From Girardia tigrina (Eukaryota), in NCBI GenBank assembly GCA_001938485.1, contig MQRK01233167.1, forward strand, positions 30,285-82,975: a stretch of 52,691 nt of DNA, given 5' to 3'. The position numbers and the translations under genes were made by a program. Below are positions 2,901-52,149 of the stretch, piece by piece (positions within the stretch are counted from its first letter, which is position 1; each line of letters opens with the position of its first letter). The notes below the pieces were generated by a model. That model was not told the DNA's origin. It searched no databases and was given only the letters and a program-made list of their open reading frames with translations.

Positions 2901-3176
2901 TTTAAAGGTCTGAATTATTGCAAAATTGAATAAAATAACATATTTATATATTTATCGATATTATTATTTATATTTAGAATTTTGAGATCTGGATTATGTA
3001 ATTAAAATATTGTTCCTCATAAATTTGTTTCAATAATGAAAATTGTAGTAGAAATAAAGTTTACAAAATTATGACTTTCAATTTTAATAACAAACCCAAT
3101 ATAACTAATTTCTTTGCATTGCAGACAACTGAAGTTTTCATACTCATGTTATATGAGAAAACATCATAATTAAGAG

Positions 3177-3754
3177 TGTGAGGAATATTTTGAATGTTTG
3201 ATGTTTTGTGTTTGAATGTGTATGTTGATTTGGAAATGTGTCTCTCCTACCCAGATGGATGATTAATGTTTTAATTCTTATTTTCTAAAAATAAGTAATG
3301 TTTAAATTTATTTTTAATTTCATATAATTTTAAAATTTTAAATAACTTAATTAAGTTTTATAATATTTAATAAATAAATCAAATTAATATTTTTTAAATA
3401 ATTAATTATCATTTTTAATTATTATGCAATAAGTTTTGAGTGAATATTTTATTTAAATATTTGTTTCCCCATTTTCTAAAAAAGTAATGAGAATTAAACC
3501 ATTAATCAATTTTCGCTTTGAATGCAAATCTACGAAAGTTTTGACAAAGATTGTCTTGAGGACAATCAAAATTGGTGTTTAAATAAAAATATAAAAAATC
3601 AAATTGGTGTTCTTAATAAATGATGTTCCTGATAAATAAATTTATTACTAGTAGCGTATGTTATGAATTCTTATTGTAATGTCATGAAAAACGAAAACTT
3701 AAAATCATTTTATTAAAAATTTATTAACAAATTCATGATAAAAGAGGCCTAACA
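3177..3754 (+). mobile_element. Solo-LTR family A copy
   Basis: Starts TGTGAGGAATATTTTG, contains the family core CTCTCCTACCCAGATGGATGATT, and possibly ends CTAACA. The flanking GAGTG(T) is repeated but the boundary is ambiguous. Confidence 0.6.
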
Positions 3755-4463
3755 GAGTGTTAAAAACACGCATTATGGGCAAATACATAGGTGTTCAGTT
3801 ACTTTAAGTATTGAAAAGTATAAGAACAATTATTATAATTTGATGTTTAAAGTGAATATTTTGTTAAATTTTAACCACTTGCATGATATACCGAAGTAAA
3901 ACATGGTATTGTAATTTTTCACATTTTTGACAAGGGGTTTTCAAAAAATTCATATTTGTTCGATATGAACTTTTACCGCGTTAAATACAGAAGGTAGACG
4001 CTTCAAAAGATCTTTTCAATTAAGTGGTTAAAATATATAAATAAATAATTTAAATATAAAAGTACTTGTTTTTAGCTAAAATAATCGGTTATATTGACAA
4101 GAAATGGATGAAAGGTATTTTGTTATAATAATAATTATCATTACTTTAGTAGAATTTATTTTGTACCATTATTTTCCATTAAAAAATAATTACAAACATT
4201 ATAGTTGACTTAAAAATCTCAAATTTGATATTAAGAACACAAGCCAGTATCAAGAAACTTTTCAAAAGTAAAACATTTTGAAAGAAGTATAACTTTAAAT
4301 ATTTGGTTATTAAGACAGAATTTTTATTAGGTCAAATAGTAATTTTAAATTTAATTTTCATTGTTTTAACTAAAAGGATTTAATTTATTTATGTTAGTAG
4401 TTTAATTAAAAGTTAGTTAAGAACGACATTTGTCATATTAAACTCTTCTGTAGCCATATTCAC

Positions 4464-4700
4464 TGTGAGGAATATTTGGAATGTTTGATGTTTTGTGTGT
4501 GAATGTTGTATGTTGATTTGGAAATGTGTCTCTCCTACCCAGATGGATGATTAATATTTTAGTTCTTATTATCTGAAAAAATGTAATGTTTAAATTTATT
4601 TCTAATTTAAAATAATTGTTATATATTAAATAAGCTATTTATTTTATTTACAAATGTTAAATAAATAAATTGAATTAATATTTCAATAATTAATATTCAT
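4464..4700 (+). repeat. Solo-LTR family A copy, truncated
   Basis: Near-identical to 3177-3330 over the first ~150 bp. Confidence 0.7.
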
Positions 4701-4814
4701 ATGTATTTTGAACCAATAAAATTTTAAATAATTTGTAAGTAGCGTTTATAACACTTTCAGTATTTTCAAATTCAGTACTCATAATTTAACACCACAATCT
4801 TTAATAATATCAAC

Positions 4815-5397: not shown

Positions 5398-7010
5398 TTG
5401 AGGTGACGATTTGTGTCTCTGATATTTGAGTTTTGATAAAATCCCTGAATTTTAAATTTATTTACAAGATTAATTATATTGAACGATCAATTCTGAACTT
5501 CGCCTTATGGAAGTCTTTTACTTTTGATGTTACTGACTGTTCGGGATTCAATTATTTTTATTTATTGCTATTACAAATTATAATATATATATATATATAT
5601 ATATATGAATATTGAATGGATCCTGCACTTTCCTTATTTGCCTTTAAAAAACTAGAAAAACAAAACTTTTTTTGTGATTCTAATTGTGTTTTTATTTAAA
5701 AATGAATTTATGGGTTTATATGAAATGTAAAAAAACCATTATTTGTAAAAACTATTATTATTAAATTTATTTTTTATTAAGAAATTAATTGGATTATGTA
5801 AAAAAGATGAATTTGTTTTATTAGATTAAATGAGATTAAAGATGAAAATTTTAAAATAAAATCGATTCATTTGCCTTATTTTTTCTATTGGAGATTTTGA
5901 TTTCGACAAATTGATATTAACAAGAAATATTAATGGAGGAAGTCGAGTTGCCTTATTTATTATTAAATTGGCTTCGAGGTGTGTACTGAAGAAATGCAAT
6001 TGTCGGCCCTCGAACAACTGTGTCTGGCACTCTTGCAATACGAGACATTTTTATGTCAAGATTTCGATATTTCATTTGCGTTTCCTCACGAAATGATCAA
6101 TCGATTGATCAATGCCAAAAGATCATTAATTGCCATTTGTATGAGATTGGAGAATCCCAATATGAATAATCCCATTAGTCGGATCAAATTAAAATTGGCC
6201 CAGCACATCGAGAAAGGTTCCCTGCGCAACACTATTACCTCCGTCCGATTCTCGGGGCTACCTGAGTGTTGGGCGGAACACTGACATAATAGTAACATTG
6301 ACAATATATTTTTAAGGGTTTTTCTGAAATTTTTAAATCTTTAAAGTATTTTTAAATATTATTTATTTAAATTCGTTCAGATTATTAATGAAACTAACTT
6401 TTTAATATTTTAATTTTGTTTGAATAATCAGTTATCGCAAATATAACAAGGCGCTAAAAGATTGATGATTATATGAAATCTGTGAGCTCACGTTTAATGA
6501 TAAATAATAATCAAAGATGAGATAAAATACTTGAAATATATTATTTAAAAAAGATATTTTCTACCGGAAAAAAATGAAAAGGTACAAAATGAAAATAAAA
6601 ATGTAATATGAATTACAAGAAATGTAAAATAAAGTCACTTTATCTTCGGTATTCAAATATGTAGTGTCTGAATTTTGTTTGACTTTGGGTAATAAAAGAA
6701 TAGTCAGTTTTGTATTTTGTTTAGTTATAAAATGTTAAGTGTCTGAAATTTGATCGTTTTTTGATAATAAATAGAGAATCAATTTCGTATAATCGTTTAT
6801 CTCGTGACTAAATTTAGTTTTGGAGAATTACGTGTAAAATTAAATAACATTATATGACCTCACAAATAATAAATCGAACGTAATCATAACATGCAAATCG
6901 TTTTAAGCATACATAAATAATAATTCATAAAATACTCATAAGTAATAAATAATGAATTTCAATTAAATTAAAATTTTATAATTATCATATAGCGATATCT
7001 ATTCGCAGTG

Positions 7011-7470
7011 TGTTAAGAGAACTCACACATTTGACAGACATTTATTACATTCACATTTCTTATCATCTTTATGATGATCAATATTATTGCTTTCACTAGA
7101 ATCCATTAATCAATTTTCAATATCTCCCATTATAATCTGAACTAACTTGAGAAAATTATTTTATTTAAAAATATTTAATTTAAATTTTATTGGCTGAAAT
7201 AAAATATTTTTATAGTCATTCTTAAACATTAATTTGATTTTAAGTATTTAAAAATTTACAAAAATAAAATCAATAAATTTATTTAAAAGTTGCAATAATA
7301 AAAATTAAAAATTTGAATATTAAATCTAAATTAAATAAATTAGTTTCAGATTATAAGAATTAAAATATTGATCATCCATCTTGTTAGGAGAGGCACAATC
7401 CCAAATCAACATATAACATTTAAACATGCAAACACTGCAAAAAGCAATTACACACCGCATAATCCTCATA
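7011..7470 (-). mobile_element. Solo-LTR family A, complete, 5-bp TSD
   Basis: TGTTAAGAG...ATCCTCATA (the terminal CA has mutated to TA), flanked by CAGTG at 7006-7010 and 7471-7475. Aligns end to end with 25893-26353. Strand is given relative to the 3177 copy. Confidence 0.8.
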
Positions 7471-7616
7471 CAGTGCAAATTCAAAATATTAATAATACAA
7501 TAAATATAAATAATATTTAATTTCCTTATAATAATGATATCCCATGTAGAGTGGTTGCTTAAGTAAGGCCTTCAACTCGGGACTAATAAAAAAAAGCTTA
7601 TATATATATATATATA

Positions 7617-7829
7617 TTATTGAGTCTTGTGAACGCAAGTTTAGTATTTCGAAAATATAATTTGATTAAAGCTTTTTTTATACAACTATTGGGAATTTGA
7701 AGTATACTATTGAAGGATTTAGAGCGTTTAAGAAGAGTATTTGTAGAACAATAAGTAGTGCTAAAGTAGTCTCTGTCACATCCAAAGTTCAAAGTTTCCT
7801 CTCAAACAAATCGAAAACAGTTTGTCATT
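7617..7829. mobile_element. Penelope-like element fragment (3' tail joined to an inverted internal piece), adjoining (TA)n
   Basis: 7617-7691 aligns with 8347-8438. About 7712-7810 is the reverse complement of ~8920-9020. Runs into an N gap. Confidence 0.75.
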
Positions 7830-8314
7830 NNNNNNNNNNNNNNNNNNNNNNNNNNNNNNNNNNNNNNNNNNNNNNNNNNNNNNNNNNNNNNNNNNNNNNN
7901 NNNNNNNNNNNNNNNNNNNNNNNNNNNNNNNNNNNNNNNNNNNNNNNNNNNNNNNNNNNNNNNNNNNNNNNNNNNNNNNNNNNNNNNNNNNNNNNNNNNN
8001 NNNNNNNNNNNNNNNNNNNNNNNNNNNNNNNNNNNNNNNNNNNNNNNNNNNNNNNNNNNNNNNNNNNNNNNNNNNNNNNNNNNNNNNNNNNNNNNNNNNN
8101 NNNNNNNNNNNNNNNNNNNNNNNNNNNNNNNNNNNNNNNNNNNNNNNNNNNNNNNNNNNNNNNNNNNNNNNNNNNNNNNNNNNNNNNNNNNNNNNNNNNN
8201 NNNNNNNNNNNNNNNNNNNNNNNNNNNNNNNNNNNNNNNNNNNNNNNNNNNNNNNNNNNNNNNNNNNNNNNNNNNNNNNNNNNNNNNNNNNNNNNNNNNN
8301 NNNNNNNNNNNNNN
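7830..8314. other. Assembly gap
   Basis: Run of N. Confidence 1.
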
Positions 8315-8346
<32 letters not shown>

Positions 8347-8349
<3 letters not shown>

Positions 8350-10200
8350 GTTGAATCTCCTGAACGCAAGTTTAAATAATTTAAATAAATTTATAAATAG
8401 TTTAAATAATTTAATTAAAGCTTCTTTTATAATTATTGAACATGTTTCGATGTTTCATACATCATCATCAGCAATATTTGAATATTTGACATGTTTTGAT
8501 TAAATAATATGATTTTAAAATTTTATTATTGATAAATGGTAAAAATTATTATTAATATTATAATTTATTAAATTTTTTTGAAATAATAAAGTCAAAAAAT
8601 ATTTTAATTAAAAATTTTAAGTATTGAAATAACCTTACTTTGCCCATTCTGAATGTTAATTGATGGGTTGTAGTATCTTAGGAATAGAGATTCACAAAAC
8701 TGTCGTTCGTAATGTGAATCAAATCCATTTTGTAGAACAGAAAACTCATCTTTTGAAATGGATGAGGTTCTATCCTTACAACATAACCAATGATCAAGAA
8801 CCTTACTCGATCGACTCATTTGCGAGTGCTCGCTAATCCGGGTTTTGAGATGACGATTAGTCTCTCCGATGTACGAGTTTTGACACGCGTGACAATTAAA
8901 TTGTTTTACCAGATTACCTTGCAATTTATTTGAGAGGAAACATTGAACTTTGGATGTGACAGAGACTGCTTTGACACTACTTATCGTTCTACAAATACTG
9001 TTCTTAAAAGCTTTAAATCCTTGAGAATATTTTATTTTAATGATTTTTTTGTATGTTTTAATGTTTGTTTTTTTAATTGTTTCTTAACCCGTGTATCTGT
9101 ACATAATTTGTCTGATGTTACCCTAATGTTGTGTTCTATTTGTTTGTTTGTGCACACATTGTCTTTCAATGTCATATAAGAATATTTAAACCCTGATTTG
9201 CGATTTCAAAATTGGACGAAAAATTCGAAACTCTGTGAACAAGGCCTTTTATCATACATTCTCTATATTTTTCCTCACAAAAACTCTGAGGTATTGTGTA
9301 ACTATCTGTATATGTTTTCCTTTTGAATAATTCAGTTTTATAACATCCAATTAGTATGTACAGAAAGGGAAGTTTATTGTTTACTTAAAATTCTGTGGTA
9401 AATTTCATATTAGGATGAAGACCATTCATAAATTTTAGGAATGGTTCTATGAGGGATTGATTTCTGAAAACCAAAAAGACATAATCTATATATTTCTTGT
9501 ACAACACAGTTTTCTCACCAGGGTATATTTCAATTTTATTCTCAAGCGACTTCCTAAAGATTGATTCCAAAGTTGGTGTTAATGGGGAACCAATTGAGAC
9601 ACAATCTTTCTGAATGTACCATTCATCATCAAAAAGAAAAGGCACATTTGTCTTTATACATTATTATTTTTTATGATTTTTGGTATAATAAATAAATAAA
9701 AAATTAATTCGGCTGCGTAATAGTATTTCTGTAGGGAACTATTAGCATATTCTCAAAGAGCGCTTTGTGTACATCAATTCTTTCCTCGTTTCTGGAGACA
9801 GATATTTAGTTATAACTTCTCCTGAGATATTTCTGTTAGTCATTTGATGTTTTCGGAAAAAGCAAATGTAAATGTATTTAAAGAATATAAAAAAACGTTA
9901 AAGAATATTTTAAAGAAGTTTCTACACATAGCAAGCCTCAATTTTAATCATATTGTTTAATCCTCGCAAATATATACCTAACCCAAATATATCATTAACC
10001 AGTTACTTTTCAAAACATCTTCTAATGTATGAGCAATATAAAAGGAGGCATAGAGTCAATAAGTTTCGTTATCACTAGATTATGGCTCAAATGTTCTAAT
10101 GACTTCAAAAATTTGTTCAAAATGTTTAATATGCTCCAAAAACAGAGGGGAGAGAGACTTCTTTATCGGTTCTATTAAGATTTGACTTTTTAGATAATAT
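8347..10200 (-). mobile_element. Penelope-like retroelement (RT + GIY-YIG), decayed
   Basis: RT motifs FLFDDEWYIQKDCVSIGSPLTP...YKKYIDYVF...MNGLHPNMKFTTE (9385-9645). C-terminal GIY-YIG with CCHH residues: CHACQNSYIGETNRHLKTRISEH...H (8604-8924). The 3' tail carries a hammerhead and ends at (TA)n. The 5' boundary is approximate. Confidence 0.9.
8434..8476 (-). ncRNA. Minimal type I hammerhead ribozyme
   Basis: Minus strand: UAUUG CUGAUGA U GAUGU-AUGAA-ACAUC GAAA CAUG UU^CAAUA. Stem I 5 bp, stem II 5 bp, palindromic stem III ACAUGU, GUU triplet. Confidence 0.85.
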
Positions 10201-12465: not shown

Positions 12466-13434
12466 TATTTGATTTTCCTACGACACTTGACTTGTTGTTG
12501 ACCAAACTAGTTCTACCTCAACACTTTATCGCAGCAATAGGGGTCAATGCGGAGAATTTAAACAAACAAATAAACTATACATAAACAGAATCTCTCCTTT
12601 TGGTGAAAAATACAATAATGATAGAGTTTTTCTTAACTTCTATTTTTGTGATTTCTTGTGGAATCCTTGGAACACAGACCAATTTACACAGGGTTTTTGT
12701 ATTGACAGACAGTGCGATTCAGCCATTGAACTAATTTGATGGGTTTAAAATATACAAGTTGTACAAGTCCATTTTGGGAAAATTATTCAAAATACTTATT
12801 ATTTAATCAGAATAATTATCATCTGATAAACAACACACTTCATTCATGAATTTTTATAAAATAATGACAAGTTTAAATTCTACTTTTTGATGATCTAATA
12901 GTCGTCCTAACGTTAAAACGTGAATGATGGGTGATTCCATTTTTTATCACGGTCGATTTTTGGTCTATCAAAATGTGATATTAATATTGATAATTTCAAA
13001 ATTATGTGTAAGCATTTCGATAGTTATTGGGAGAAAGTTCCGTATGAAGGTAACGTTTTGGGTAACGTTCATTGGGTAACGTTTTTCCTATTCAATGTAA
13101 AGGACAGAGTTAACCAGTTTTGTTAGAATTTTCGCGTAGCGTGATTTCATGCACCTGATTACACATTCATAATTTTGTATTTATAAATTCGGATTAATTA
13201 AATAACACTTCAATGAGAGGATAATGACGCGTGTTTCATCAAAATACATTGTTAAAAATTTTTTTTGAAATGGTTGCGCTTTGTTTCTTTTAAATTATAC
13301 AATGCGTTTTTTCAATTGAAATAAAATTTATTTTCCAAATTGTCTAAGGTATATTAATTTATTGAGTTTTGGCAATCACCCAGAATGACACAATCACGGA
13401 TCGACGAAATCTCGAAAGGCGATGTAAGACACTA

Positions 13435-13738
13435 CAGAGATGTCGGAATCATTCTGAATGTTAATACAACTATTGGACATGTTTCAATTTTTAAAAAAAT
13501 CATCATCAGCAATTTTCTATTGAATTGTTTGAATAATACAATCTTTCACAATTTTAATAAATACAATTTACTTTAAATGGTAACGAAGAAATTAAACATT
13601 TTTATTTATCAAAGTATTATTGGGTAATATGGCAAAAGTTTTTTAATTAAAAATTTTAAGTATTGAAATAACCTTACTTTGCCCATTCTGAATGTTAATT
13701 GATGGGTTGTAGTGTCTTAGTGTTCCAGAGATGTCGGA
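13435..13738 (-). mobile_element. Short 5'-truncated PLE insertion (same family as 8347-10200) with 13-bp direct repeats
   Basis: 13642-13720 is nearly identical to 8602-8681 (end of the GIY-YIG ORF). Hammerhead at 13471-13514. CAGAGATGTCGGA at 13435-13447 and 13726-13738. Confidence 0.8.
13471..13514 (-). ncRNA. Minimal type I hammerhead ribozyme
   Basis: Minus strand: AUUG CUGAUGA U GAUUUUU-UU-AAAAAUU GAAA CAUG UC^CAAU. Canonical GUC triplet; stem III ACAUGU. Confidence 0.8.
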
Positions 13739-17279: not shown

Positions 17280-20200
17280 CTCTCCATTAGAATTTAGGAT
17301 GCACTTCAACCATTCAATTCTTCTTGGTTTTGGTTTTCCTGGAAAATCAATCAACACTTGATGTGACTTAAAAATTCAAGAATTTGAAAAGGACCATCAT
17401 ATCTGTTTCCATTTTTCTTGATGTTGTGAGGTTCTTTCTTTAATAAAACTTTTTCACCGATCTAAAAATCTCGTTGGTGTCTTCTGCTTGCTTCTAAGTT
17501 TTGAAGTTTGTCTGTTGCCTTTCCTGATTCAAATTTCGTTTCCAAAATTATTCTCTCGTGATCAATACTGCTTGATGATGGTAACCCATTTAAAATAAAT
17601 TTCCTCCCAAATACAATTTCAAACGGTGAACGTTTAGTTGGGCTCTGATATGTTGCGTTTATTGAAAACTCTATTTTTGGAATCATCTTCTCCCACGCTA
17701 TTTTTTCTTTCTTACTCTTCAAAGATGTAACCAACATATCTCGTACAGTTCGAATGGCTCGCTCTGCTAATCCATTTGCTTGATGTTGATACGGAGAAGT
17801 AAATTCTTGTTTAATTTCAAATATTTCTGTTAGTTTCCTTAAAATAGCTCCTTAAAATACTCGGCCTCGGTCTGACAATATAGATTTAGACTTCCGAAAC
17901 TTGTAAATCCAGTGATCTTTTATAGCTTCTGCAACACTCAATTCATCTTGTTTGGTCAAAGGTACAAGACTCACTAGTTTGCTGAAACGGTCTATCATCA
18001 CAAGTAAATATTTGTATCTGGATTTGAATTCTGAGAAGCATGCTACATCAATTATCATTTGTTCCAGCAGACCAAAATCTTCTCGTGGTATCAATAACTA
18101 TTTTTTACACCCCGAATATGTTTTCCTTTTTGCACAAATTTCACATCTCTGTACCATGAGTTCGATAGTTTTGCTCATGTTTGGTCAATGATAGCTTTCC
18201 TGAATATATTCAAGTAACTTTTCTTGCTTCCCAGATGACACAACTCCTCGTGAATATACTGGGTTAACTTATCTGCATAATTTTCTGGGACTAATATCTG
18301 TACTGTCTTTTCATTCTTACTCATAACAATTCCATCTATCAAATCATATTTATCTAAATTCTTGAAATATTTACTTTTCTTCACTTCAATATTTATATTT
18401 TGAGAGGAAGCTCCAAGCCATTGATGTTTTTATTTCAGTATTGAGTCTGACAGTTGTATCGCTCTGATGTCTTCATTGTTCAAATCTCTTGTTTCTATGG
18501 TGTTTATGAACTTTACTTTTAATTTATTTGACTTTGCTCTTTGATAACGTGTTAAATATTGAGTACATAGTTTTTCATCAATTCTTGAAAGTCCATCAGC
18601 ATTAGTATGCTCTTTTCCTTTCCGATATTTCAAAATAAAATTAAAACTAGATAAATTAGCGATCCCTGTCTGGAATTGTGGACTAATAGGCTTGTTGGTT
18701 TTTGTCATGTAAGTTAAAGCTTAATGATCAGTGCGGACTAAAAATTTCTTCCAATAAAGATAATATCTGAAATACATTATAAACTCATGAACCGCCAGCA
18801 ATTCTTTTCTAATTACACAATAACCTTTTTGAGGTCATTTAGAGTTTTAGATGCAAATGCAATGACTTTCTCGTTCCCAATATAATCATTTTGACTCAAA
18901 ACTGCTCCGATAGCTCCAAAACTTGCATCAGTATCTAAAATCATTGGTTTTTCATATCCGGATATGCTAATATTGGAGCTGTTGCCAATTAAATCTTCAA
19001 CTTATTAAAACTCGACTTTCAATCATCCGTCCAGTGATTTTTTTTCTTTTTTTCACTCAGCATAGCATACCACGTGCGGTAATCAATGCATAATCTTTAA
19101 TGAACCTCCGATAATAGTTTGCTAACCCTAAAAATGACATCAGCTGTGTAATACATCCTGGGCTTGGAGCTTGCATAATCTTTTTGATTTTATTATCGTT
19201 CGTTTCAACGCCCTTGTTGCTGATTGTGTGTCCTAAAAACTTTAGTCTTCTGGTTCCAAAAAAACATTTATCTGGGTTCACAATCAAACCAGATTGCTTA
19301 ATTATTGTAAATACTTGTTTTAATATACTTAAATGGTTTTCCTCATTCTTCGCATAAATTAATATATCATCTAAATATACAATAACTCCTTTATAAAGCA
19401 AATCCTTAAACAATAAATTCATAAGGCTCTGGAAAGTTACTGGAGCTGTGCATAATCCAAACGGTAAGCGATTGAAACAAAATTGACCGATTTTAGTACT
19501 AAAAGCTGTTTTTAATTTTGATGCTTCATCCAGTTCCACCTGATAATACGTTTGACCTAAATCAATGGTCGAAAAAATTATTGACCCCCATAATGTAAAT
19601 ATTCGGCACAGGAAATGTAAATTTCTCTGTAACATTATTCAGTCGTCTAAAATCTAAGCACATTCTGATAGATTCATCTTTTTTCGGTACAATAACCAGA
19701 GGAGAATTCTAAGGACTCTAATATGACTTAATAATATTAGCTTTTAATAAATCAACAATCAATTTATCAAACTTATCTTCAAGATGCATGGGCTGGCGTC
19801 TCTGATTTGCAGAAATTGGTGGACCGGTAGTCCGGATTTCATGTTTGATTACCGTTCTGTGGCCTAAAATTGAAGCCAAATTTTGAAGCCATAAAAATTG
19901 ATCCATATTATTTAACAAGTAAAGTTAATGGCAAGTTTGACTTGTCAATTAAACTCCTTAACGCGACAGTAATAAGATCAAGATTATTAAATTTCAATTC
20001 CACATACGAAGTATCTATAGTATTCACTTCTGTTAACCCTATACCACACATTCTCATCATATCGATTCCTCCAATAAATCCAGGATATATATTTCGCACA
20101 ATCACGATTCCTTTTTTCTCCTTTACACCATCCCACAAAATATCAACATATATTTTACCTAAACACATTTCAGGACTTGTAGAAAAGACACTTGAAAGTT

Positions 20201-24815: not shown

Positions 24816-25673
<858 letters not shown>

Positions 25674-25892: not shown

Positions 25893-26353
25893 TGTTTAGA
25901 GAACTCACACATTTGATAGAACATTTATTACATTCACAATTTTGATCATCTCCATGACAATCAATAGTATTGCTCTCATTTAATTCAAGCACTCAATGTT
26001 TAATACTTGTCATCTCAAATCTGAACTAAATTGAAAAGAATTATTTTATTTAAAATATTTACTTTAAATTTTATTGGTTAAAATAAAATTACTTTTTCAT
26101 ATCATTTGAAAACATTAGTTTGGTTTAATTATTTAAAAATTTACAAAAAAAAAGTTTATAAAATTTTTTTAAAAAATTTACAATAATAATAAATTTAAAT
26201 ATTAAATCTAAATTTAAATAAATCAGTTTCAGATTATAAGAGTTAAAATATTGATCATACATCTGATTAGGAGAGGCACAATCCCAAATCAACACACATC
26301 ATTTAAAGTTCCAAACAATACACAAAACAACAACATTCCAAATATTCCTCGCA
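25893..26353 (-). mobile_element. Solo-LTR family A, complete, 5-bp TSD
   Basis: TGTTTAGAG...ATTCCTCGCA flanked by GATAT at 25888-25892 and 26354-26358. Confidence 0.85.
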
Positions 26354-26531
26354 GATATAGAAGAATTATTTTGAATTTAATTTATTAATACAGATTACTC
26401 TTTGAAAAAGAAAAGGTAATACATTCAATGCATATTTAAAAGATGATATTTTTGTATTATTCTTATTGTATTATTCTTCGTGTTTAAATGCAAAAAGTAC
26501 ATGTATTTAATGCTATACTTAAATAACTAGA

Positions 26532-26890: not shown

Positions 26891-27229
26891 TATATATATA
26901 TATATATATATTGGTCATATCATAAAGGATATCAATAAATAAAGAATGTTAAAAAAGAAAGAGAAAGACAAACAAGTTACCTTATTTCTCTTAGTGCTTA
27001 ATTAGAGCCACATGTTCCATTAGACCGACATGTTGACTACCACTCAAAACAATAGACCGATACTGCTTAATTAACGGATGTAAAGGCAAAATCTAGACAT
27101 TTTTGTCAATCTCAAAAAAAGAAAAAGTAAAAGTCTAATCGAAGTAAAACCTTTTTTAGCAAATGAACAGGACAAGTAGAACATGTAATAAACATCAAAC
27201 AAGAGACAACGGTTCAGTAGATTCAGAAA

Positions 27230-28080
27230 TCTTATTCCGACTTTGACAGTCCTATATTCATTCCACAAATACGACATCTCCATTTCATTCAATGATTTCT
27301 TCCCCTTACGATCCAACTGCATGATGTTCGTGGCCTTCCAACCTCGCTTGCAAACTTCGGATTTAAAATTGGCCACAATCCTCCACTGGACGGCATTGGG
27401 GAATGTTTGTAGGGTTGGATGTCTTGGGCGCAAATAGGATATGAAGTGACTCTAACAGTTGTAGTATGGAATTGGCTTAATGTATTGACACAAAGTCGGG
27501 TTCACTAACCTTTACATCCTCTGAAACACAGATCCAGACTATCAACTGAATGGAGAACTTCTTTTCAGGTCGATATTTCCCCAGAAGGGGGATTGGTTTG
27601 GATGTCCGAGGTGTAAAAGGGATCGTTTACGGATAGATAATTAGATTTGAGTTTGAAATAACACTCGTCATCCATGAGAATTATTTTTATTTTCAAAACT
27701 TCAAGTAATTTTCCGGGAAGATTTTTTGCAGTCTTCTCTTGTTCAGAGGTATCCTTCGGAGCTTTAATTCATTTATAACATCGAATTCATTGAGAACATT
27801 TATGATGGTTTGGTGACTCACATTGTGTTCCCTTGGTTTTTTGTCGGAGTGACACACCACTTTTGTTTACTGACCATCGACAGATACTGGCTCGTTGGGA
27901 GTTTGTCAGTTTCTTATTATGTCCACCACTCTATGGCTTGCGAGAAACATCCAAATTCACCTGTAGTATTGTAAGGATGGAGTAGATTGTCGAGCGTGCA
28001 AATCCCTCTTCTAAGAAGTGTTTCACAATGAAGAATTTTCCTTTCGTGTAATGCATTCTCTAAAATTTGCTAACACTGTC
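27230..28080 (-). pseudogene. Tc1/mariner-superfamily transposase relic, maT (DD37D)-like
   Basis: Minus strand: KFFIVKHFLEEGFARSTIYSIL (HTH), ILMDDECYF, and PKTSNPTNIPQCRPVED..KSEVCKRGWKATN. Confidence 0.75.
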
Positions 28081-28561: not shown

Positions 28562-28563
28562 TA

Positions 28564-28827
28564 CAGTGCGTTCAGAAAGTCACTGTGCACCTTTCATTGT
28601 CTGGTTTATGTTTAGATAATCAGCGTTGTAGCAGACTTTTTAAATGCAAATTTCTATGAAATCGAACTACGAAATAGATTCGTGAACAAAAAACATACCT
28701 ACACACTTTGACCTTGACACTGAGCGTTTTAAATTTTTTTAAAAAAATATCATTTTGATATTCAATCTAATCATTGACGAAAGTCAATTTATTGCGAAGT
28801 TAATTCCAATTGAAAATGGTTTTGTCA
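28564..28827 (+). mobile_element. 5' end of the mariner-like element seen at 31136
   Basis: TA + CAGTGCGTTCAGAAAGTCACTGTGCAC; nearly identical to 31136-31399; stops just after the transposase ATG. Confidence 0.9.
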
Positions 28828-30443: not shown

Positions 30444-31135
30444 GTACAGTTCGGTGAACCTGTTTAGTACGTCAAAAATAAAATAAAAAATTAACAAATG
30501 TCAAATAAAAAATAACTGTATTGTTAACAAAATATAATTTTTATAACTCTAACCGATACAGGGAACTGTCAATGAAATTTTTGGGATCGTCAAATGTATA
30601 TAGTATAAAAATTCACCGCTTGATATTGTTTGGGATAAAATATAGTTTTTTGCAATGAAATATTGTAGTTGGCTATAAAACGTTATTGTCGTCAAAAATA
30701 AATGATATTGATAGTCAAATATAGTCAGGATGAAAATAAATTAGTGACCAAACATTGTTCGTAACATCAGTAAATCATAGTTTTCAATTGCATTTTCAGT
30801 AGTATATTTTTTTCAGTTTCAATAATAGTAATTAATGGAAATATTCTTTACGACTTTATTTTGAAACAATGATATTGATCATGGAAATCAATATTTCTAT
30901 GGTTAATTTAAATTTAATTTTTATTATAGCTTCGCTATATTAATTTATATATTGTTGTAAATGACCACATTATTTGATTTAGTTTCTTCTCGTTTACAAC
31001 ACAAGTGACACTTAAAAAATAATCACACAGACACTCAACAGTCGTGGAGGTTGTTGACACGACAATAAAAAAATTAAGGCATTCGTCCTTTGAATAAAAA
31101 CTAAAAAATAATAATTGACATAAAATATAAAAATA

Positions 31136-32552
31136 CAGTGCGTTCAGAAAGTCACTGTGCACCTTTCATTGTCTGGTTTATTTTTAGATAATCAGCGTTT
31201 TAGCAGACTTTTTAAATGCAAATTTCTATGAAATCGAACTATGAAATAGATTCGTGAACAAAAAACATACCTACAAACTTTGACCTTGACACTGAGCGTT
31301 TTAAATTTTTTTAAAAAAAATATCATTTTGATATTCAATCTAATATTGACGAAAGTCATTTTATTGCGAAGTTAATTCCAATTGAAAATGGTTTTGTCAA
31401 CGGAGGAGAGAATATTTTTGATTGAACATGTCTTTCGTGCGAATGATGAATACACAGAACCAGTGAAGGAAAAATTTGCTGAAAAGTTTCCGCAACAGCA
31501 ATACCTCATCGAAATGCAGTTCGAGCGTTAGTGAACAAGTTCAGAGAAACTGGATCCGTTCCTGATGCCTCCCACTCAGGTCGACCAACGATTTTAACGG
31601 AGCAAAAAGTCAATGTTATTTCGAAAGCCATGAGCCAGAGTCCAACAATGTCGATGCGCCGTTTATCTCAAGAAGTGAGTGTATCCGTTGAAACTGCACA
31701 TGCCGCCGTGAGGAAAACTTTAAGCTTATATCCATATCGTATTACTTGTCAACATGAGTTGAAAGACACAGACTTTGAAAAGCGACTCCAGTTTTGTCAT
31801 TGGTTCAAGGAAAATCTGAATGAGGATGACATGCTCGACAAGACTTTTTTTCCGATGAAGCGTGGTTTCATTTGTCTGGATATGTGAGTAGCCAAAATTC
31901 TCGAGTTTGGTCCAGTGAAAATCCGCATGAATTTGTTTAGAAGCCTTTGCATTCCTTGAAAGTTGGAGTATGGTGTGCCATGTCCAGGTGGCGTGTAATT
32001 GGTCCCATCTTTTTTACTGAAACCATAACATCAGAAAGGTACTGCAAGGAAATCCTTTCTGCTTTCATCGACCAGTTAAACTAAAGAAGAACGATCGACT
32101 GGCTATTTTCAGCAGGATGGTGCAACAGCACATACCGCAAACATTTCGCTTCGTTCTTTGAATGAGATCTTCCCGAAGAGAATCATTTCCAAAGGAANNN
32201 NNNNNNNNNNNNNNNNNNNNNNNNNNNNNNNNNNNNNNNNNNNNNNNNNNNNNNNNNNNNNNNNNNNNNNNNNNNNNNNNNNNNNNNNNNNNNNNNNNNN
32301 NNNNNNNNNNNNNNNNNNNNNNNNNNNNNNNNNNNNNNNNNNNNNNNNNNNNNNNNNNNNNNNNNNNNNNNNNNNNNNNNNNNNNCAGCAGTTGTTGTGA
32401 CTCTTTTCTTGTTATTTTTAATAAATTAAGAGACGGTCATTGTTCTTCACATAAAATTGACTATTCAAAATATTTTGTTATTAATTTTTAGAACACAGGA
32501 TATCCTTCTTGTTTTGAAATTGCATGTGCACAGTTACTTTTTGAACGCACTG
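31136..32552 (+). mobile_element. Tc1/mariner-superfamily transposon, full length, frameshifted (DUF4817-type N-terminus)
   Basis: 27-bp TIRs CAGTGCGTTCAGAAAGTCACTGTGCAC / GTGCACAGTTACTTTTTGAACGCACTG with TA on both sides. ATG at 31388; KFRETGSV, FSDEAWFHLSG, PLHSLKVGVWCA, FQQDGATAHT. The third catalytic residue lies in the N gap. Confidence 0.93.
32198..32385. other. Assembly gap
   Basis: Run of N. Confidence 1.
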
Positions 32553-32719: not shown

Positions 32720-34550
32720 AGTATGATGATGTTTTAATTTACTCAAAATCAATGAAGGTTCATATGAGACTACTAGAAGAAGTACTGAATAGACTGAAGA
32801 AAGCATGTTTAAAAGTCAATCCAGGGAAATGTAAATTCGGACTGGGGGAGCTGGTATTCTTGGGTCATAAAATTAACAAAGAAGGTATCTCAACAAATAA
32901 ATTGAAAGTGGCAGAAATTCAAAAATTTCCTATTCCAAAGTGTACTCAAAATCACGAGCATTTTTGATCTGTGTAACTACTATCGATGATTTATCAAGAA
33001 TTACGCCGAATTAGCAGCACCTTTATACAGTGCATGTAGCGGAAAATGTAAAGAAATGTTTTAGTTAGACAAGTGCGACAGAAGCTTTAATGAATTGAAG
33101 CAAAAGTAGTAGTACGCCAATGTTAGCATTTGTGAACCGGAATAATAATTTCATCTTACACAGATGAATCATTCTGATTGATGGGAGCAGTTCTAAGTCA
33201 GATATCAGAAGAGAAAGAAATAATAATCGCGTATGCATCGAGGACTTTAACCACACTTGAAAAGGGTACTGTGTGACAAGAAAGGAACTATTAGCTTTAC
33301 AAGAGTTCATGTTACATTTCAAGTAATATTTATATGGCAAGCGATTTACAGCAAGAACTGATCATAAAGCACTGGTGTATATGAAGAGTACTTCCAAACC
33401 AGTAACTCCTCAATTCCAGACATAATTAGAAAAAATGGCGGATTTGACTTTGATTTGAGGTATATAAATGGTGACGAACATGGAAATGCAGATGGATTAT
33501 CATGGCTATACGACGACGTTTGTGCACAATGTGAAACAAAACACGAAGAACCAATATCAACAAAAGCAAGGGTGAAACACATCAATACAGTGATGATTCA
33601 GTCTACAATTCAATGGATAAAAGACGAGCAAGTAAAGTGCTCAGAGTTGAACCAGTTGAAACAAATACAGGAGATGGCAGAGGGTGAAAAGAATGAAATC
33701 ATCAAGGATTTATTACAACTAAAGGACCAATTAGTTTATCAGAATAGGTTATGGGATAGGCAAGAAGGAAATTGTGTGTTACCATTGGTTCCGAAGCAAA
33801 TTGAAGAGATTTAATCAGGAAAATACACAGAGATTTGTGTCATGTAAGGACCAAAAAGACAAAGAAGTATGTCTAAAATCATTTTATGCTACCAGATTTA
33901 GCGAAAGAGGTGCAAATCGTTATAGGAGAATATCAGGAATTTATACGCAGAAAAATTCCCAGTGAAAAAGCAAAAGAGAAGTTGATTCCAATCAGAAGTG
34001 ACGAATTTTTAGAGCAAGTCGTGATGGATATCGCAAATGTGGGTGACAAGAATAGTATGTACCCATATCTATTGGTCATGGTGGACCAGTTTTCGAAATT
34101 GGTCTCTTTGACAGAGATTAGAACTCAAAACGAAGACACCATAGTTCAATGCGTGTTGATAAAATGGATATATAGATATGAGAAGCCAAAAACAATATTA
34201 ACAGACAATGGAAAATGTTTTACTGGCGGAAAATTTAGAGATTTTTGCAGGAAATTTGGAATCGAACAAAGATTTAGTAGTCCATTCCAACATAAATCAA
34301 ACGGGTTGGCAGAAAGAACTATTCGAACAGTGAGAGACATGATAGTAACAAGCAGAGGAGACACAGACAAACGATCATTGTGAAAAATTGTTCCGAAGAT
34401 AGAATTCTATCTAAATACAGCAGTTCAGGGTACGACCGGATATTCGCCCTTTGAAGTTGTTTTTGGTAAAAAAATAAACTTACATGCGGCAGCAGTACAT
34501 AAACTTTATTATATCGTGATAAAAAACGATAATAACATTAAAGTTGGGAG
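32720..34550 (+). mobile_element. Ty3/Gypsy pol fragment (RT end, RNase H, integrase), related to 17280-20640
   Basis: DDVLIYS...LKVNPGKC; RTDHKAL; EHGNADGLS; EQVVMDIA...VDQFSK...TDNG...SNGLAERTIRTVRDM. Confidence 0.92.
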
Positions 34551-43952: not shown

Positions 43953-44639
43953 TGGGAATACGAGACTCGTTGTGGTATTATTTATATAAGCAACTTGCGA
44001 AAATTGAGCATTTCTTTCGTTCTCATAAAAATTTTACTGATACAAACTCTGTATGATCGATTACTTTTTTAATGTTTTTTTTGTATTTTTAATATAATTA
44101 TAAACAAAAGATTATTGTTTTCATTATCGTTTTTCAAATGCTTTTTTCGTTGTTGAATTTTTGAAAAATATTTTATTTTATTCAAACATTTATTTTGAAA
44201 TAACTAATTCGCTATTTGTATGTCGAGAATTAGAATTATTAATGACTGCGTCACAAATATGCATCACTTTGCACTTCGATATTGAGTTTTCGATGACTAA
44301 TGAGACTCTTTCGGAAGTGTCTCAATGGCACTTGAAGTGTCAGTATTTACATTAAGTATTTACAGGACGTTCATAATCTATTTCAAGTTATTTTCATTTT
44401 TGTAACTTTCTTGTTTTCCATGTAGATTGAAGACTAAGATATTCCTATTCGACGATAAAAATATACATAAAGTGATACATGTTTTGTCAAATTTGCAACA
44501 TCGTCCTTAAAGGATTCAAAGCTTTAACTATAGGGTGCTTTTTGTGGTACGCGATGTTTTTTGACAAAAGTGAAAAAATGAAATAATTTCATGTTTATTG
44601 ATAAAATGAAGTTCGGATGATTTTTTTATTGAAAACAAA

Positions 44640-45434
44640 ACTCATCCATTAAAAAATATATTTATAGACAATATATTTCGACGGATCAATCGTCATCTTC
44701 AGGTCACTGATTAATAATTAATTCACCTGTATATAAATACAAAAATGGTGATTGTGTAATCGATTACGTGAAATCATGCTAATCAAAAATTCTCAATAAG
44801 CTAGTTGAGACTGCCTATTGAACATTGATTTTAGGACAAGTGACCTAATTAACAATGCTTCACACGACACTCTCCCAATAACTGTCAAACTGCTCACACA
44901 GAATTTTGAAATTATCAATATTAACATCATATTTACATTTTTTCCTATGTTTTGCAATATTATTCTCACTCTCTTTTCGATCATGTTCTTGAATTTTTTT
45001 ACAGAGATGACGGGCAGTCTCTCCAATGTATGTGGCATCGCACCAATTACATATCCATAAACAATATCAGAACACAGTGTTAGAGGTGTAATATATTTAC
45101 TGAAAATATTTTGAGATCGTAATATAATTTTTAAATTTAACTCATTGTTAGTTGCTTTTAACAATGTATTTTTAAAGTTTTTAAATCCTTCAGAATAAGG
45201 TACAATTAAACAATATTTAGGCATGTTATTAATATCTAAAGATCCTTCGATTTCTTTCTTAGATCCATCAGGAGAAGCTTTCGAAATATCTTTTAAAAGT
45301 ATTTCAATCGACAGTCTCAACCAGCTTATTGAGAATTTTTGATTAGCATGATTTCATGCAATCGATTACATAATCATCATTTTTGTACTTATATACAGGT
45401 GAATTGATTATTAATCAGTGACCTGAAGATGATG
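44640..45434 (-). mobile_element. Penelope-like element 3' fragment with inverted terminal repeat
   Basis: Frameshifted GIY-YIG (CNWCDATYIGETARHLCKKIQEH). Arms 44691-44823 and 45302-45434 are inverted repeats. Confidence 0.85.
44667..44705 (-). ncRNA. Minimal type I hammerhead ribozyme
   Basis: Minus strand: GAC CUGAAGA U GACG-AUUGAUC-CGUC GAAA UAUA UU^GUC. Palindromic stem III AUAUAU; short 3-bp stem I. Confidence 0.7.
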
Positions 45435-45439
45435 TTTGT

Positions 45440-46055: not shown

Positions 46056-47607
46056 ATATTTTTAAAAATTGAATTTATATTTCAAATTCAGTTTAAAACA
46101 AACAAATGAAAAAAATTATATTCGTTTTTAAATATTTAAAAACCTATGATATTTATTTGGAAGACTATACTAATGACTTGGAAATGGTATATTACGATTA
46201 ATTTAAGTGGCGAAAAATGTCTTCATACCCAGTTAACCGGTTAAATAATTATGTAAAACTACTTTTACTAAAGATTATCGTCATCCCAAGACATGTTTCA
46301 ACTCCCGTCTCAGTCGTTACGTAGCTTATAAAATGCCTCCAATAATTTCTTCGAAATATTTCTTCTGATATATACTAAAAAAATATTTATATTTGGAGAG
46401 GTATTGGGCTGGCATAAAAAAATCTATTTAGACATTGAATTTTGTTAAGGTATACGTAGTTTACGAAGAATTACCAAATCGCTGAAATAATTTCTTTTAA
46501 ATAAGTATTCATTTGCTGTTTGTAAATGATATGCAAATTTTCTGTCAAATGGACCTTGTCCTGAAATAGACATTGATCTTTACAAGTAAACGAAATAATA
46601 ATGACCTTCACTAAGTCATTTACGCAACATCAACTGCTTCGCTATCTCCTATACTTTGGAAGAAAAAAATACTTTCTTTTTTTTATGCAAAATAACTTCA
46701 AAATGTTAAATGATATTTTTATATAGGAATTTGTAATTGTTTATATTAGTGATTTTTAAAATTGTGGTGAGGCGTATATCCTTGCCAATGTGGACCCGTC
46801 ACTTATATCGGATCACCGCACATGTGTGAGATGTCCACTGAAGTCGCTAAAATAGTGAAATTATTCGACCAAGAATATGGAGGTAAATTAATGTCTCTAT
46901 GAAATTATCATCCAGTTGATGAAGAAACTTTATGAAATTATAATATTGTTGTGAAATATCAAGAACTTATTTCTTCATCGAACGGTGGGCTGGTTGATAC
47001 AAAGTCGAATCTTGACCGGTTTTTTCTTTCTTTTACGTTATCTAATAATCTTCTTTGTAAGATTAGGCTTGCAAGTTATAGCGTCAATATTTCACATTGT
47101 GGCAAACTCAGTTGATTGTCGAATGAACACTCATCGATAAAATAACACTTTGTCATCAGCAGGCGAATTCCTTGTAAATCCAAAACCTTTAAGTAAAAAA
47201 GTAAATATGAAATTTTATGAAAACTTAAAAATTTAATGAAAATAAATAAATATTTTTAAAAATTGAATTTATATTCATTTCAAATTAAAAAAAATTATAT
47301 TTTTGAAAATCAATTGAAAACTAAAAAAATCAGTTCAAAGTTAAAATGAAAAAAAATATTATTGTTTAAATATTTTAAAAATTATGTTAATGATTTAGAA
47401 AATTATACTAATGGTTTGGAAATGGTAAATGCTGCCTGATCTCTTTTTTTCGATGCATTAATGTCAATCAGAGACGTCTCTTCCATATTTCATGACATGG
47501 ATTTTAAGTGATCAATTTATTAATTTTGATAAATTGATAAACACATTACAGAAATTGAAAAAAAATGGGCAGATTATTAAAATCAAAATTCGAAAGCCAA
47601 TTGAAAA

Positions 47608-47648
47608 TATTTATTAATTTCGACGGTTTAACCGTCATCGTCAGAACA
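47608..47648 (-). ncRNA. Minimal type I hammerhead ribozyme
   Basis: Minus strand: UGUU CUGACGA U GACGGU-UAA-ACCGUC GAAA UUAA UA^AAUA. Stem III palindrome AUUAAU. Confidence 0.8.
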
Positions 47649-48193
47649 AATGATTTTTCAAACGAATTATAGTGCAGTTAATGATTATGCAATCAATACG
47701 TAATCAGTACATCATTTAAAAACTCTCAACAAAGTTGTAGAGAATGCAGTTTGAACGTTAATTTTAGGATCCAAAGATCTTATATATAACGCTTCACATG
47801 TCACTCTCTCCCAATAATTTTTAAATTCAGTGCACAGAATTTTAAAGTGTTGTGAAGTTATATCTCCTTTACAATGTCTTCTATGTCCTGCAATGTTACT
47901 TCCACCTTCATTGCGACTGTGTTCCTGGATTCTCTTACAGAGATGACGTGAAGTCTCCAATGTATGTGGCGTTACACCCATTACATGTATATTGGTAATT
48001 GAGATCCGAACACAATGCCAATGGCGTTGGAGATTTATTGCCAAACATGCTTTCAATTTTCTGTGTCCGGGATATTACTTTTAAACTTATTGCATTATCT
48101 AACGCTTTCAAAATATAATTTTTTAAATGATGTACTGATTATATAATGATTACATAATCATTAGCTGCACTATATTTCGTTTGAAAAATCATT

Positions 48194-48234
48194 TGTTTTG
48201 ACGATGACGGTTAAATCGTCGAAATTAATAAATA
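48194..48234 (+). ncRNA. Minimal hammerhead ribozyme, C3U variant
   Basis: UGUU UUGACGA U GACGGU-UAA-AUCGUC GAAA UUAA UA^AAUA; inverted copy of 47608-47648. Confidence 0.65.
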
Positions 48235-50017
48235 TTTTCAATTGGCTTTCCAATTTTGACATCACAGAAAATTGAATTTATTACAAAAAGAGTTTTATTT
48301 CTTAATTTTATGTTATTCATTATAATTTATGTATTGTAAAATCAAGTGATATATTCAATATACCATACTTACAATTTACTTACAACTTACTTTGTAAATA
48401 TTTTTATTTTACATTTTATCATAAATTGTCGCTTTAAACTTATTAAAGATAAAGAAGACTGAAATAATAGTCACTTGTGACATTTAAGTTAAGGTATGAA
48501 CTATAAGGATTAAGACAAAGGTTCATTATAATAGTTACCCTTACCACTGAAAGTAGCTAGAGATTTTTAAATGATGACATTCTTAACCAGTCTTTATAGT
48601 TGTTGGGCTTAACCAAACACAAAAATATTGAGAATCGCAATTATAATTATTGAGATTAAAAGTTAGTGTTTTATAATTATTTATTAAATAAAGCGTTCAA
48701 TTTGAGTTGTAATAAATTGAAATTATTAATTTTATAAAATAAAAAGTCCATTTAGTCATGAATATTACCACAAGTTTCTAATCTTGATAAAAAAATATTT
48801 ATTTAAAATGAAATAATATATTAAGTAATAGTCTAAAGTTTAGACACATAACAATTAGTTAAACATAATTTTCAGAACATGGAATTTTTTTTAAATATAA
48901 CTACATTAATATGAAAAACATTCGTTAATATCACTGTTTATAGTTCCAGATAAAAGTTGTGGTGCAACCTCTATAAAATTCACCAATAAGTTCGGTATTA
49001 TCTAGATAAGACCACTTTAAAAATAATAAAACGGGAATGTGGTTAACCATAATTGTATAAAATGTAGAAGTTATGGAATGTTCCTGTTGGTGGGGAGCTT
49101 TTTTTAACTGTTCTTGTGCAGATAATTCGCCTGCTCGACCAGTGTCCTCGTCTTCGTCTTTCGATCGATTTGAGTCTGTCTTGAGCCAGTGCGATTTCCG
49201 TCCGCCTTTTTGATCAAAGACAGGTTGCTTTCCGCTGGTTGCTTTTTTGATCAGCATGAAAATTTCGCTGTATGTCGAGATTTTCTGGGATTCCTCCGGC
49301 AAGATTTAAGAGAGATTGACTTCCTACCATTTTGACGGATTGCATGGGGCACCGATTGTGATGTGGAGATAGTCTTTTTGTTGGGCCAACATACGCTTGG
49401 GTGCATTATAATTTTTATTTCTCACAACAATTCATTCTTTTGCAAAAATTGCTCAATCATTTCCTTTTCCTTGTCGCAAACTCAAGTCAGAAAATTTTTT
49501 TTATTTCAAATTTTTGTTACTGTAGTGTCCTGTATTTTTTTATTAAAATTTTATTCAAACTTCATTTAAGAAGTTTCAAAATCGAAATTAATTTCTTATT
49601 AAAATTTTTTTTCTATTTTTTATTCAATTTAAGAAGCTTTAATCGAAGTCAATTTCATTGCCCAAATCACTTAATCATTTTTGTTCTTGTTCCTGATCGT
49701 ATTGCTTTCGCATTTTTTGGTATGCAACAAATCGGATTTATAATTACAAAAAAATTAATTGATTAAAATAGAAAAGAAAACAAGAGACTTTGTTTTAATA
49801 TTCAAACATTAGATAATTTGTTTGTGTGTGTTTTGTAAGAATAAAATTATTTTATCAACAATGACCTTAATTTTTTATCTATATTTAATATTTCTTCCCG
49901 ACGTCGCTCCAAGCCAAGCGACACCTGGGTGAGCTCTCAAGTCATCATTCGGTCGATTTGACGGTTCAACCGTTTTGCATTTTTTGGATCTTGGGGCGAT
50001 ATCTGAGTCCAATAAAA

Positions 50018-50032: not shown

Positions 50033-50889
50033 TCCCCATTGCTATTCTGAATTCACCTTCGGCAATGGGCGGTCCGCAACGAACTATCCGATGGCTCACT
50101 CAACAGATGCATCACGTTGCAGCCGCAATGTCCAACCGCATATATCGATCAACCTCCGATAAGAATCTCTTAACAGTGCAACACCCGATCGACCACTTAC
50201 AGAACGAGTCACCCATAGCGACAACAATGCCGATTTCGACAATAAACTCCGGTTGCCACACCAATTCCGTCGAAGTTCTCTCCGATACAGAAACGATCGG
50301 CTCAGATCAGCGATATCAACAGAACTCAGATACTGCGGAATTCTTCATGGGGCACCGACCGTCATCTGCCCTATCGGTCGTCCAGGTGTGTCCATTTGAT
50401 TATTATCCACTTTGTGCAGAAGGCAATATTTTTATGGAACAGAGACATAAATGTTAATTTTTAATTAATTTAAATAATGGATTATTGTTAGATTTTTTTA
50501 CGAGTACATATTTTTGGACTGAAATAAGGAGTGGATGTTTTAATCCTGGGGGTGTACTAAAAAAATAAATCACATGGTATTAATACTTATCGACCTAAAT
50601 ACTCCACCACCATCACCACATCATTCCCCAAATGCAACTACATCTCTATAGTACTCCAGGTTAATCTCAGTATCTCTAAACCAGTCGTCGATGTTGACGC
50701 GCGTATCAGTGACACAATTTTGTCAACATCAGAGGAATACGACTTTCGTATCTGGTTCGTGTGGGGCGCCAAGCCACTCCGCTCACATCTTTCCTCTGCA
50801 GCACATGGCGTGCCTGATCGAGCACGCATCACGGTACACTGCGTCTTGCCGGGCGGTGTCAGTAATGATCCGGATGAACAAGATAGCGA

Positions 50890-51850: not shown

Positions 51851-52149
51851 AATTCATAGGTCATCATTTCGTATTCCAGCTCAATAAACATTATTATATG
51901 TATTTATGGCCCCCTAAAATAACGATAAAATTTTTCTTATGATTTAATACTTAAGGTCTATAAATTTCTCAAGGAACAATTAAAAATATCACACAGTATG
52001 CTTCTAAAAATTACAAAATTAAACTTTTTTATTTGAAATTGTAAAAATAAAAAAAATAAAATAGAACGCTTAAATATAACTTGTTAAGTTTAAAAAAATA
52101 TTGGTTGAGTTATGGATAACCTGGATTATTTAGGAGATTAACTTGTTTT

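Follow-up and report, generated by a model that had tools for sequence, protein, structure and literature searches.

Hammerhead motifs in the terminal repeats of decayed Penelope-like elements of Girardia tigrina, with a predicted cut downstream of the start codon

Overview

A stretch of 52,691 nucleotides from Girardia tigrina (contig MQRK01233167.1; hereafter the window) carries five minimal hammerhead motifs, which lie at the ends of Penelope-like element (PLE) copies from three families. They very probably represent type I hammerhead folds in minimal form, located in terminal repeats of PLE copies that have since decayed, and are likely to cleave slowly as dimers, with the predicted cut just downstream of the start codon. 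In two of the families the predicted start codon of the open reading frame (ORF) is likely to lie inside the motif, and cleavage would separate the AUG from its gene. The pLTR duplicates the beginning of the ORF, and this would place an AUG within the ribozyme.

The architecture of the five motifs is already in print, and the observation of an inserted U repeats in one more animal what was described in 2014 (Cervera & De la Pena, 2014; PMC4209133). What is new relative to that description is the predicted start of an ORF inside the ribozyme, although the same overlap has already been published for PAc (Frangieh et al., 2024; PMC11167929).

Identification of the motifs

An initial annotation of this DNA had listed five ribozyme-like motifs, here called 8434, 13471, 44667, 47608 and 48194 (Table 1). 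All five were found where it had placed them, with the sequences it had given; the strands (four minus, one plus) and a stem I of 3–5 bp in each motif were absent from its list. The common pattern is YUGANGA-U-G10.1, a stem II region of 15 or 16 nt, GAA, a six-nucleotide palindrome, H (non-G) and stem I. The type I core CUGANGA/GAAA/UH is exact in four of the five motifs, 48194 having U3, and a G10.1–C11.1 pair is likewise present in four, 13471 having G-U. The U inserted between A9 and G10.1 is found in every motif, as is the palindromic 15.2–16.2 with loop 3. Stem III is always a six-nucleotide palindrome, as had been claimed (ACAUGU at 8434 and 13471, AUAUAU at 44667, AUUAAU at 47608 and 48194), and the triplets are, in order, GUU, GUC, AUU, AUA and AUA.

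A strict descriptor, drafted after the motifs had already been seen, matched five sites in the window and none in any of 400 block-wise local dinucleotide shuffles. Relaxing it (zero to two inserted bases, stem III of 2–12 nt, core variants) returned the identical five sites, with a mean of 0.025 and a maximum of one match per shuffle. A covariance model built from the five motifs, which score 54–64 bits by construction, found no sixth intact motif in the window; the next score was 15.9 bits.

Searches with the Rfam hammerhead families gave no match at E ≤ 5 for the window or at E ≤ 10 for two short stretches, and the minimal forms fall outside these curated models. The descriptor printed in 2014 (gaaannuh) recovered none of the five motifs. 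The expectation that standard descriptors would miss them is therefore borne out for both, but for the descriptor the cause is the six-nucleotide stem III and not the U: an extra base is already permitted there, whereas stem III is confined to its shortest form (PMC4209133, supplement), and widening stem III alone recovered four of the five. Counting such motifs needs searches with a stem III of variable length.

The initial annotation had correctly given an extra nucleotide after A9 and a palindromic stem III as known features; both are described in the available text of PMC4209133. Its further proposal of a special lineage-wide set with an inserted U is not supported. In that text interfamily covariation, a base between 9 and 10.1, G10.1–C11.1 and a palindromic 15.2–16.2/loop 3 are general traits of metazoan PLE hammerheads. 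Counted by eye over the 56 rows of Fig. S3 of the same paper, the inserted base is A in 30, U in 12, C in 11 and G in one, with none in two. The 12 rows with U come from cnidarians, rotifers, flatworms, a fly, nematodes and a mollusc, so that U is no lineage mark. Six-nucleotide palindromes are found there in Drosophila, Adineta, Oikopleura and a shrimp.

Elements carrying the motifs

All five motifs sit in a pLTR, just 3' of the GIY-YIG-type endonuclease end of a PLE ORF, and the endonuclease ends beside them all match proteins with a reverse transcriptase (RT) and an endonuclease (EN). This position, together with the pairing described below, upholds their assignment as PLE hammerheads of the palindromic-stem-III type. 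The three families that had been proposed were confirmed. Motifs 47608 and 48194 occupy the two arms of a single inverted insertion (131 of 140 nt identical), so that the five motifs represent three independent families in four insertions.

For the family A ORF at 8604–9083 one longer relative was found among 291 candidates, P0122, which is 83% identical and has RT and endonuclease; its cluster includes the nearly full-length P0135 (836 residues). The family C end has six relatives among 12 candidates, in clusters that include P0163 (841 residues). Endonuclease identity between P0135 and families B and C is 37–39%. P0135 and P0122 match RVT_1 (E = 6e-11 and 2e-11, respectively) and then carry a YxFxCxxC..YIGET..H end, which we take to be a GIY-YIG-type endonuclease motif; neither protein gave a Pfam GIY-YIG match. 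P0168, a relative, is named as a GIY-YIG endonuclease by a source. A PDB search with P0163 yielded only weak matches to retron and group II intron RTs (E = 0.002–0.03). By eye, no extra zinc-finger-like motif was found in the RT–EN linker of P0135 and P0163, as for the Penelope/Poseidon clade; such a motif occurs in Neptune and Nematis according to the available text of PMC8557442.

Table 1. Positions of the hammerhead motifs and PLE pieces in the window. Core C3/U3 positions are from the descriptor scan.
Feature	Position	Strand	Core C3/U3	Evidence or remarks
Family A hammerhead motif	8434–8476	-	8471	stem I 5 bp, U insertion, stem II 5 bp, palindrome ACAUGU
Family A hammerhead motif	13472–13513	-	13509	U/A-rich stem II closed by G-U; descriptor, frame reading
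Family B hammerhead motif	44667–44705	-	44702	stem I 3 bp, stem II 4 bp, AUAUAU, triplet AUU
Family C hammerhead motif	47608–47648	-	47644	stem I 4 bp, stem II 6 bp, palindrome AUUAAU
Family C hammerhead motif, inverted arm	48194–48234	+	48198	C3U and one G-C to G-U, likely decayed
5'-truncated, decayed family A PLE: RT end, linker, endonuclease, 3' pLTR	8406–9660	-		85% to L001, 1294 nt
Short family A 3' fragment: last 25 codons and pLTR	13461–13720	-		protein and L001 matches
Young family A linker/endonuclease piece	7711–7829	+		99% to L001; inverted to tail fragment; assembly gap 7830–8314
Family A tail fragment	7611–7692	-		97.6% to L001 1840–1921; ends in (TA)n
Family B endonuclease end, decayed	44782–45251	-		protein matches
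Second, inverted arm of family B insertion	45303–45438	+		ends inside stem II; hammerhead 5' half only
Family C endonuclease end, frameshifted	47715–48129	-		69% identical to P0163 over 81 aa
Family C inverted arm	48120–48259	+		carries the 48194 motif
Decayed B-like PLE 3' end	12971–13286	+		71% to 44633–44934; hammerhead core no longer intact
Family A, extents	8406–9660, 13461–13720, 7611–7829			protein mapping
Family B, extent	44667–45438			protein mapping
Family C, extent	47583–48259			protein mapping

Every coding part in the window is truncated or broken, and the copies are probably inactive as elements. We considered 8434 and 13471 as the two pLTRs of one full-length element and rejected this, as the family A protein matches stop at 9660 and resume only at 13646–13720. 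No two motifs of the same family form an intact tandem in the window: in B and in C the two arms face in opposite directions, and each of the two A copies is a truncated insertion of its own. The tail of the larger family A copy continues to a (TA)n repeat near 8345. The short one is flanked by a 12-nt direct repeat (about 13435–13446 and 13726–13737), likely a target-site duplication. Near 13435–13470, 14 nt of sequence from inside the element are repeated, and a further 9 nt match its 5' junction in inverted orientation; these copies suggest template jumps. A very decayed family A endonuclease piece is found at 5398–5472 (minus strand; 77% to the family A sequence L001 over 75 nt).

Family A is very abundant, with a depth that climbs towards the 3' end when contigs of the public runs X1–X3 are aligned to L001; this multi-copy comparison covered family A only. 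A metagenome scan returned one locus from 324 candidate stretches, and only 108 partial reads of run X21 were placed. Family A has two 3' ends into (TA)n, 34 nt apart, at L001 1887 and 1921. These two ends and the inverted 5'-truncated arms (136 nt in B, 140 nt in C) fit the layout published for PLEs, of inverted truncated arms and a tail of 30–40 bp (PMC8557442, available text).

Pairing and predicted folding

The alignment used for covariation holds six related rows, the five motifs and L001, from three independent families. In these rows 88% of the cells are paired and nine of the 14 pairs change on both sides, with all three helices contributing (four of five pairs in stem I, three of six in stem II and two of three in stem III). 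The covariation score of the six related rows is 0.686 compared with 0.275 when shuffled and was matched in none of 500 shuffles; the count of both-sided changes was equalled in 31 of 500. Both controls lean towards structure because the structure was read from these same sequences. The UTRs that flank the motifs in families A, B and C align poorly, yet the core and its pairing persist, and the catalytic boxes and H17 (never G) are retained in all three families. Two variants fall within the motif in family A, both in loop II, among the 40 of 132 variant rows listed for runs X1–X3.

The proposal that stem II changes are compensatory agrees with the pairing kept across the three families, but it fails between 47608 and 48194, the motifs of which differ by two one-sided C-to-U changes (C3U, and a G-C pair turned into G-U). 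The 7-bp stem II suggested earlier for 13471 would leave a loop of 2 nt and was abandoned; at most 6 bp are possible, closed by G10.1–U11.1, and no stable stem II hairpin was predicted at this site (0.0 kcal/mol). With an unstable stem II in the one and one-sided C-to-U changes in the other, 13471 and 48194 look decayed and, on these predictions, are probably weakened as ribozymes.

Calculated folding energies are unfavourable for a monomeric hammerhead (+0.5 to +7.6 kcal/mol). Pairing of the palindromes within a family gave −4.6, −0.8 and −0.2 kcal/mol compared with +0.8 to +2.6 kcal/mol, again unfavourable, across families; the A/U-only palindromes of B and C would form very weak duplexes. 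The calculated values are consistent with cleavage as a dimer rather than a monomer. For PLE hammerheads the available text of PMC4209133 reports no cleavage of monomers and low cleavage of dimers, and a review states the dimer model in its available part, citing Lunse et al., 2016 (PMC6765202).

Overlap with the start codon

For family A the overlap is established by the predicted reading frames. The AUG in the frame of the ORF is at 8443–8441, within the stem III palindrome, and the predicted cut is between 8439 and 8438, that is within codon 2. In the 13471 copy the AUG at 13480–13478 gives MSNSCI, which is the N-terminus of P0135, and over the first 28 residues the frame of the L001 tail agrees with P0135 at 24 positions. 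Out of the ORF frame, family A also has three AUGs in frame with each other in the core and stem II (L001 1810–1818; window 8468–8460), which open a short upstream ORF, 14 codons long in L001, that overlaps the start.

In family C a predicted start at A9-U-G10.1 fits. This AUG of the 47608 motif (47638–47636) reads MTVKPSKLI, and P0163 and P0165 begin MAGNPPKLI. The start of P0163 can encode an AUG, a 15-nt stem II with six Watson–Crick pairs and the family C palindrome, something that none of 754 internal methionines can do; the link is made by back-translation of a relative that is 69% identical. For P0163, as for P0135, the start is the gene-caller start in the protein record. Aligned with each other, these two proteins show an N-terminal offset of nine residues, near the 22–23 nt between the two AUG sites.

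We rejected A9-U-G as the start codon of all families. It is out of frame in family A and fits one of 62 long PLE proteins, and so is not general; since it is out of frame in family A, the start codon cannot explain the U in every family. Fits of the N-terminus to the 3' core were found in five of the 62 against a background of 3.3%, with no clear excess. P0193, a close full-length relative, begins MSTEIYC; codons for these residues could spell the 3' core together with the palindrome of family B, which would place its AUG in loop II. We did not find the overlap as a general rule in the literature surveyed; Lunse et al. (2016), on PLE hammerhead dimers, may already treat the overlap or the present variants.

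The family A tail fragment at 7611–7692 encodes about the first 28 codons of the ORF. Its homology begins at C17 (L001 1840), the base just before the predicted cut (within 1 nt; n = 1), and it is joined to the inverted endonuclease piece at 7711–7829 with microhomology and through an 18-nt filler that repeats the first bases of the tail. The filler looks as if joining had been attempted twice at the cut. Such a structure would be expected if a cleaved RNA had been reverse-transcribed, as judged from this single junction with its short filler and microhomology. No pile-up of cut-site junctions was seen among the 22 of 3761 rows listed, the table of common ends was empty and loose ends were found in three contigs, of run X2; most 3' ends here read through the motif.

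Proposed mechanism and alternatives

Stem III would be too short to form within one motif, and two copies of the same family would therefore pair through their palindromes, either in a tandem transcript or in trans. Whereas the motifs, their position and their pairing can be read directly in the window, slow cleavage of such dimers is proposed by analogy with published work. Cleavage, perhaps assisted by the protein of the element, would release an RNA of unit length and would cut the AUG (in stem III in family A, at A9-U-G10.1 in the family C relative) from the coding body.

A different role is conceivable, though we think it unlikely, in which the motif is kept as a structural or protein-binding signal at the pLTR–ORF junction, for the start of reverse transcription or for translation, and cleavage is rare or incidental. 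The read-through of the motif by most 3' ends here agrees with this, as do published observations, each from the available text of its source: hammerhead mutants of PAc insert normally in vitro and no reads end at the cut, reverse transcription of PAc begins downstream of the motif (PMC11167929), and Naiad PLEs thrive without canonical hammerheads (PMC8557442). A purely structural signal is harder to reconcile with the catalytic boxes and the non-G H17 kept in three families, or with PAc itself, the motif of which cleaves with protein and shows C3/G8 rescue (PMC11167929, available text). We regard it as very improbable that the shared architecture merely reflects inheritance from one ancestral pLTR free of current structural selection, or chance in AT-rich DNA. 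The families are only three, the window copies are decayed and the changes at 48194 and 13471 weaken pairing, as such an account would have it; against it stand the 400 shuffles with no match, the persistence of core and pairing between poorly alignable UTRs and the both-sided changes in three helices.

Possibly, although we rather doubt it, the inserted U owes its fixation to a present or former role of A9-U-G10.1 as ORF start codon in this lineage, with family A later shifting its start to stem III. The start of P0163 and P0165 fits this exactly, and a stem II region of 15 nt in both B and C leads into the same M-x-x-x-x-S-K frame. By eye, the Schmidtea row of PMC4209133 combines U with a 15-nt stem II region, and ten of the 12 published rows with U have G10.1 and so spell AUG. 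However, a G at 10.1 is common in any case, the U persists in family A although its own A9-U-G is out of frame, and 42 of the 56 published rows carry A, C or G instead (PMC4209133, by eye). A full-length relative of family B was not found, and another close relative, P0193, seems to start in loop II (a 3.3% chance per window).

The overlap bears on what PLE hammerheads are for. We advance as speculation, and expect it to be wrong sooner than right, that the PLE hammerhead is a translation switch: the AUG of every family would lie inside the ribozyme and upstream of the cut (at A9-U-G10.1, in loop II or in the stem III palindrome), cleavage would convert the mRNA into a template without coding capacity, and translation would be left to uncut RNA or to circles formed by re-ligation, with the U having arisen as the middle letter of that AUG and 7611–7692 as a genomic fossil of cleavage in vivo. 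If start codons do lie upstream of the cut in many families, at differing places in the fold, cleavage would regulate translation. The high copy number of family A, with near-intact young members, would make the question of translation testable.

Other features of the window

An exon of proteasome alpha-7 at 24939–25673 (plus strand) is unusually divergent, at 54–66% identity to all of the animal matches listed, among which proteins of flatworms, annelids and molluscs rank high. Remains of other mobile elements, comprising RT (RVT_1, E = 2e-29), integrase cores, DUF7041 and a Tc1-like HTH, lie at 19057–19638, 780–1223 and 17462–17851 on the minus strand and at 33877–34383, 50561–51211 and 31483–31887 on the plus strand. 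Two ORFs, 27071–27451 (minus) and 52120–52557 (plus), have weak matches to ATR-like HEAT repeats (E = 0.007 and 0.03) and are possibly exons of related genes. A 267-nt direct repeat (28562–28827 and 31134–31399; 97% identical, 2572 nt apart) possibly represents LTRs or a duplication. AT-rich inverted and dispersed repeats (22610–22758/23649–23785; 2529–2628/14502–14608; 3167–3466, 4463–4731, 7011–7467 and 25893–26354) resemble non-autonomous DNA transposons. Small shares of the words of the window occur in freshwater and litter metagenomes, which is no evidence of habitat.

Comparison with known systems

The closest likeness is to the PLE hammerheads of Cervera & De la Pena (2014; PMC4209133), which in the available text of that paper occupy the same site in the pLTR 3' of the endonuclease and share CUGANGA with an extra base, G10.1–C11.1, a short stem I, a palindromic stem III and covariation between families. 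Individual rows of that paper come closer still: the Drosophila Penelope rows carry the hexamer AUAUAU of 44667, a re-reading by eye allows this hexamer also in the row of Schmidtea mediterranea, which has U and a 15-nt stem II region, and the U3–G8 core of 48194 recurs in the Saccoglossus(1) row. All three families here combine the U with a six-nucleotide palindrome, a form that the descriptor printed in 2014 misses, and the motif is not related to the start codon in the available text.

In the green anole Poseidon element PAc (Frangieh et al., 2024; PMC11167929, available text), as here, the hammerhead overlaps the start of the ORF with the cut downstream of the AUG, and a tail of 30–40 nt has two 3' ends; in G. 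tigrina the 3' ends follow the cut at distances of about 47 and 81 nt, unlike those of PAc. Cleavage of PAc requires the protein of the element and is not needed for insertion in vitro, and in the RNA-seq data described there no reads ended at the cut.

More distant parallels are found outside PLEs. The (+) hammerhead of the viroid CChMVd, with its extra A10, also keeps a base between A9 and G10.1, for a non-catalytic role (PMC1636495, available text); it differs in having A rather than U and a full stem III, and in belonging to a viroid RNA that is active as a monomer and has no ORF. Animal non-LTR retrozymes carry type I hammerheads related to those of PLE pLTRs (bioRxiv 10.64898/2026.07.22.740005, available text), but these are non-coding tandem repeats, whereas the motifs described here lie on coding fragments of PLEs, outside tandem arrays.
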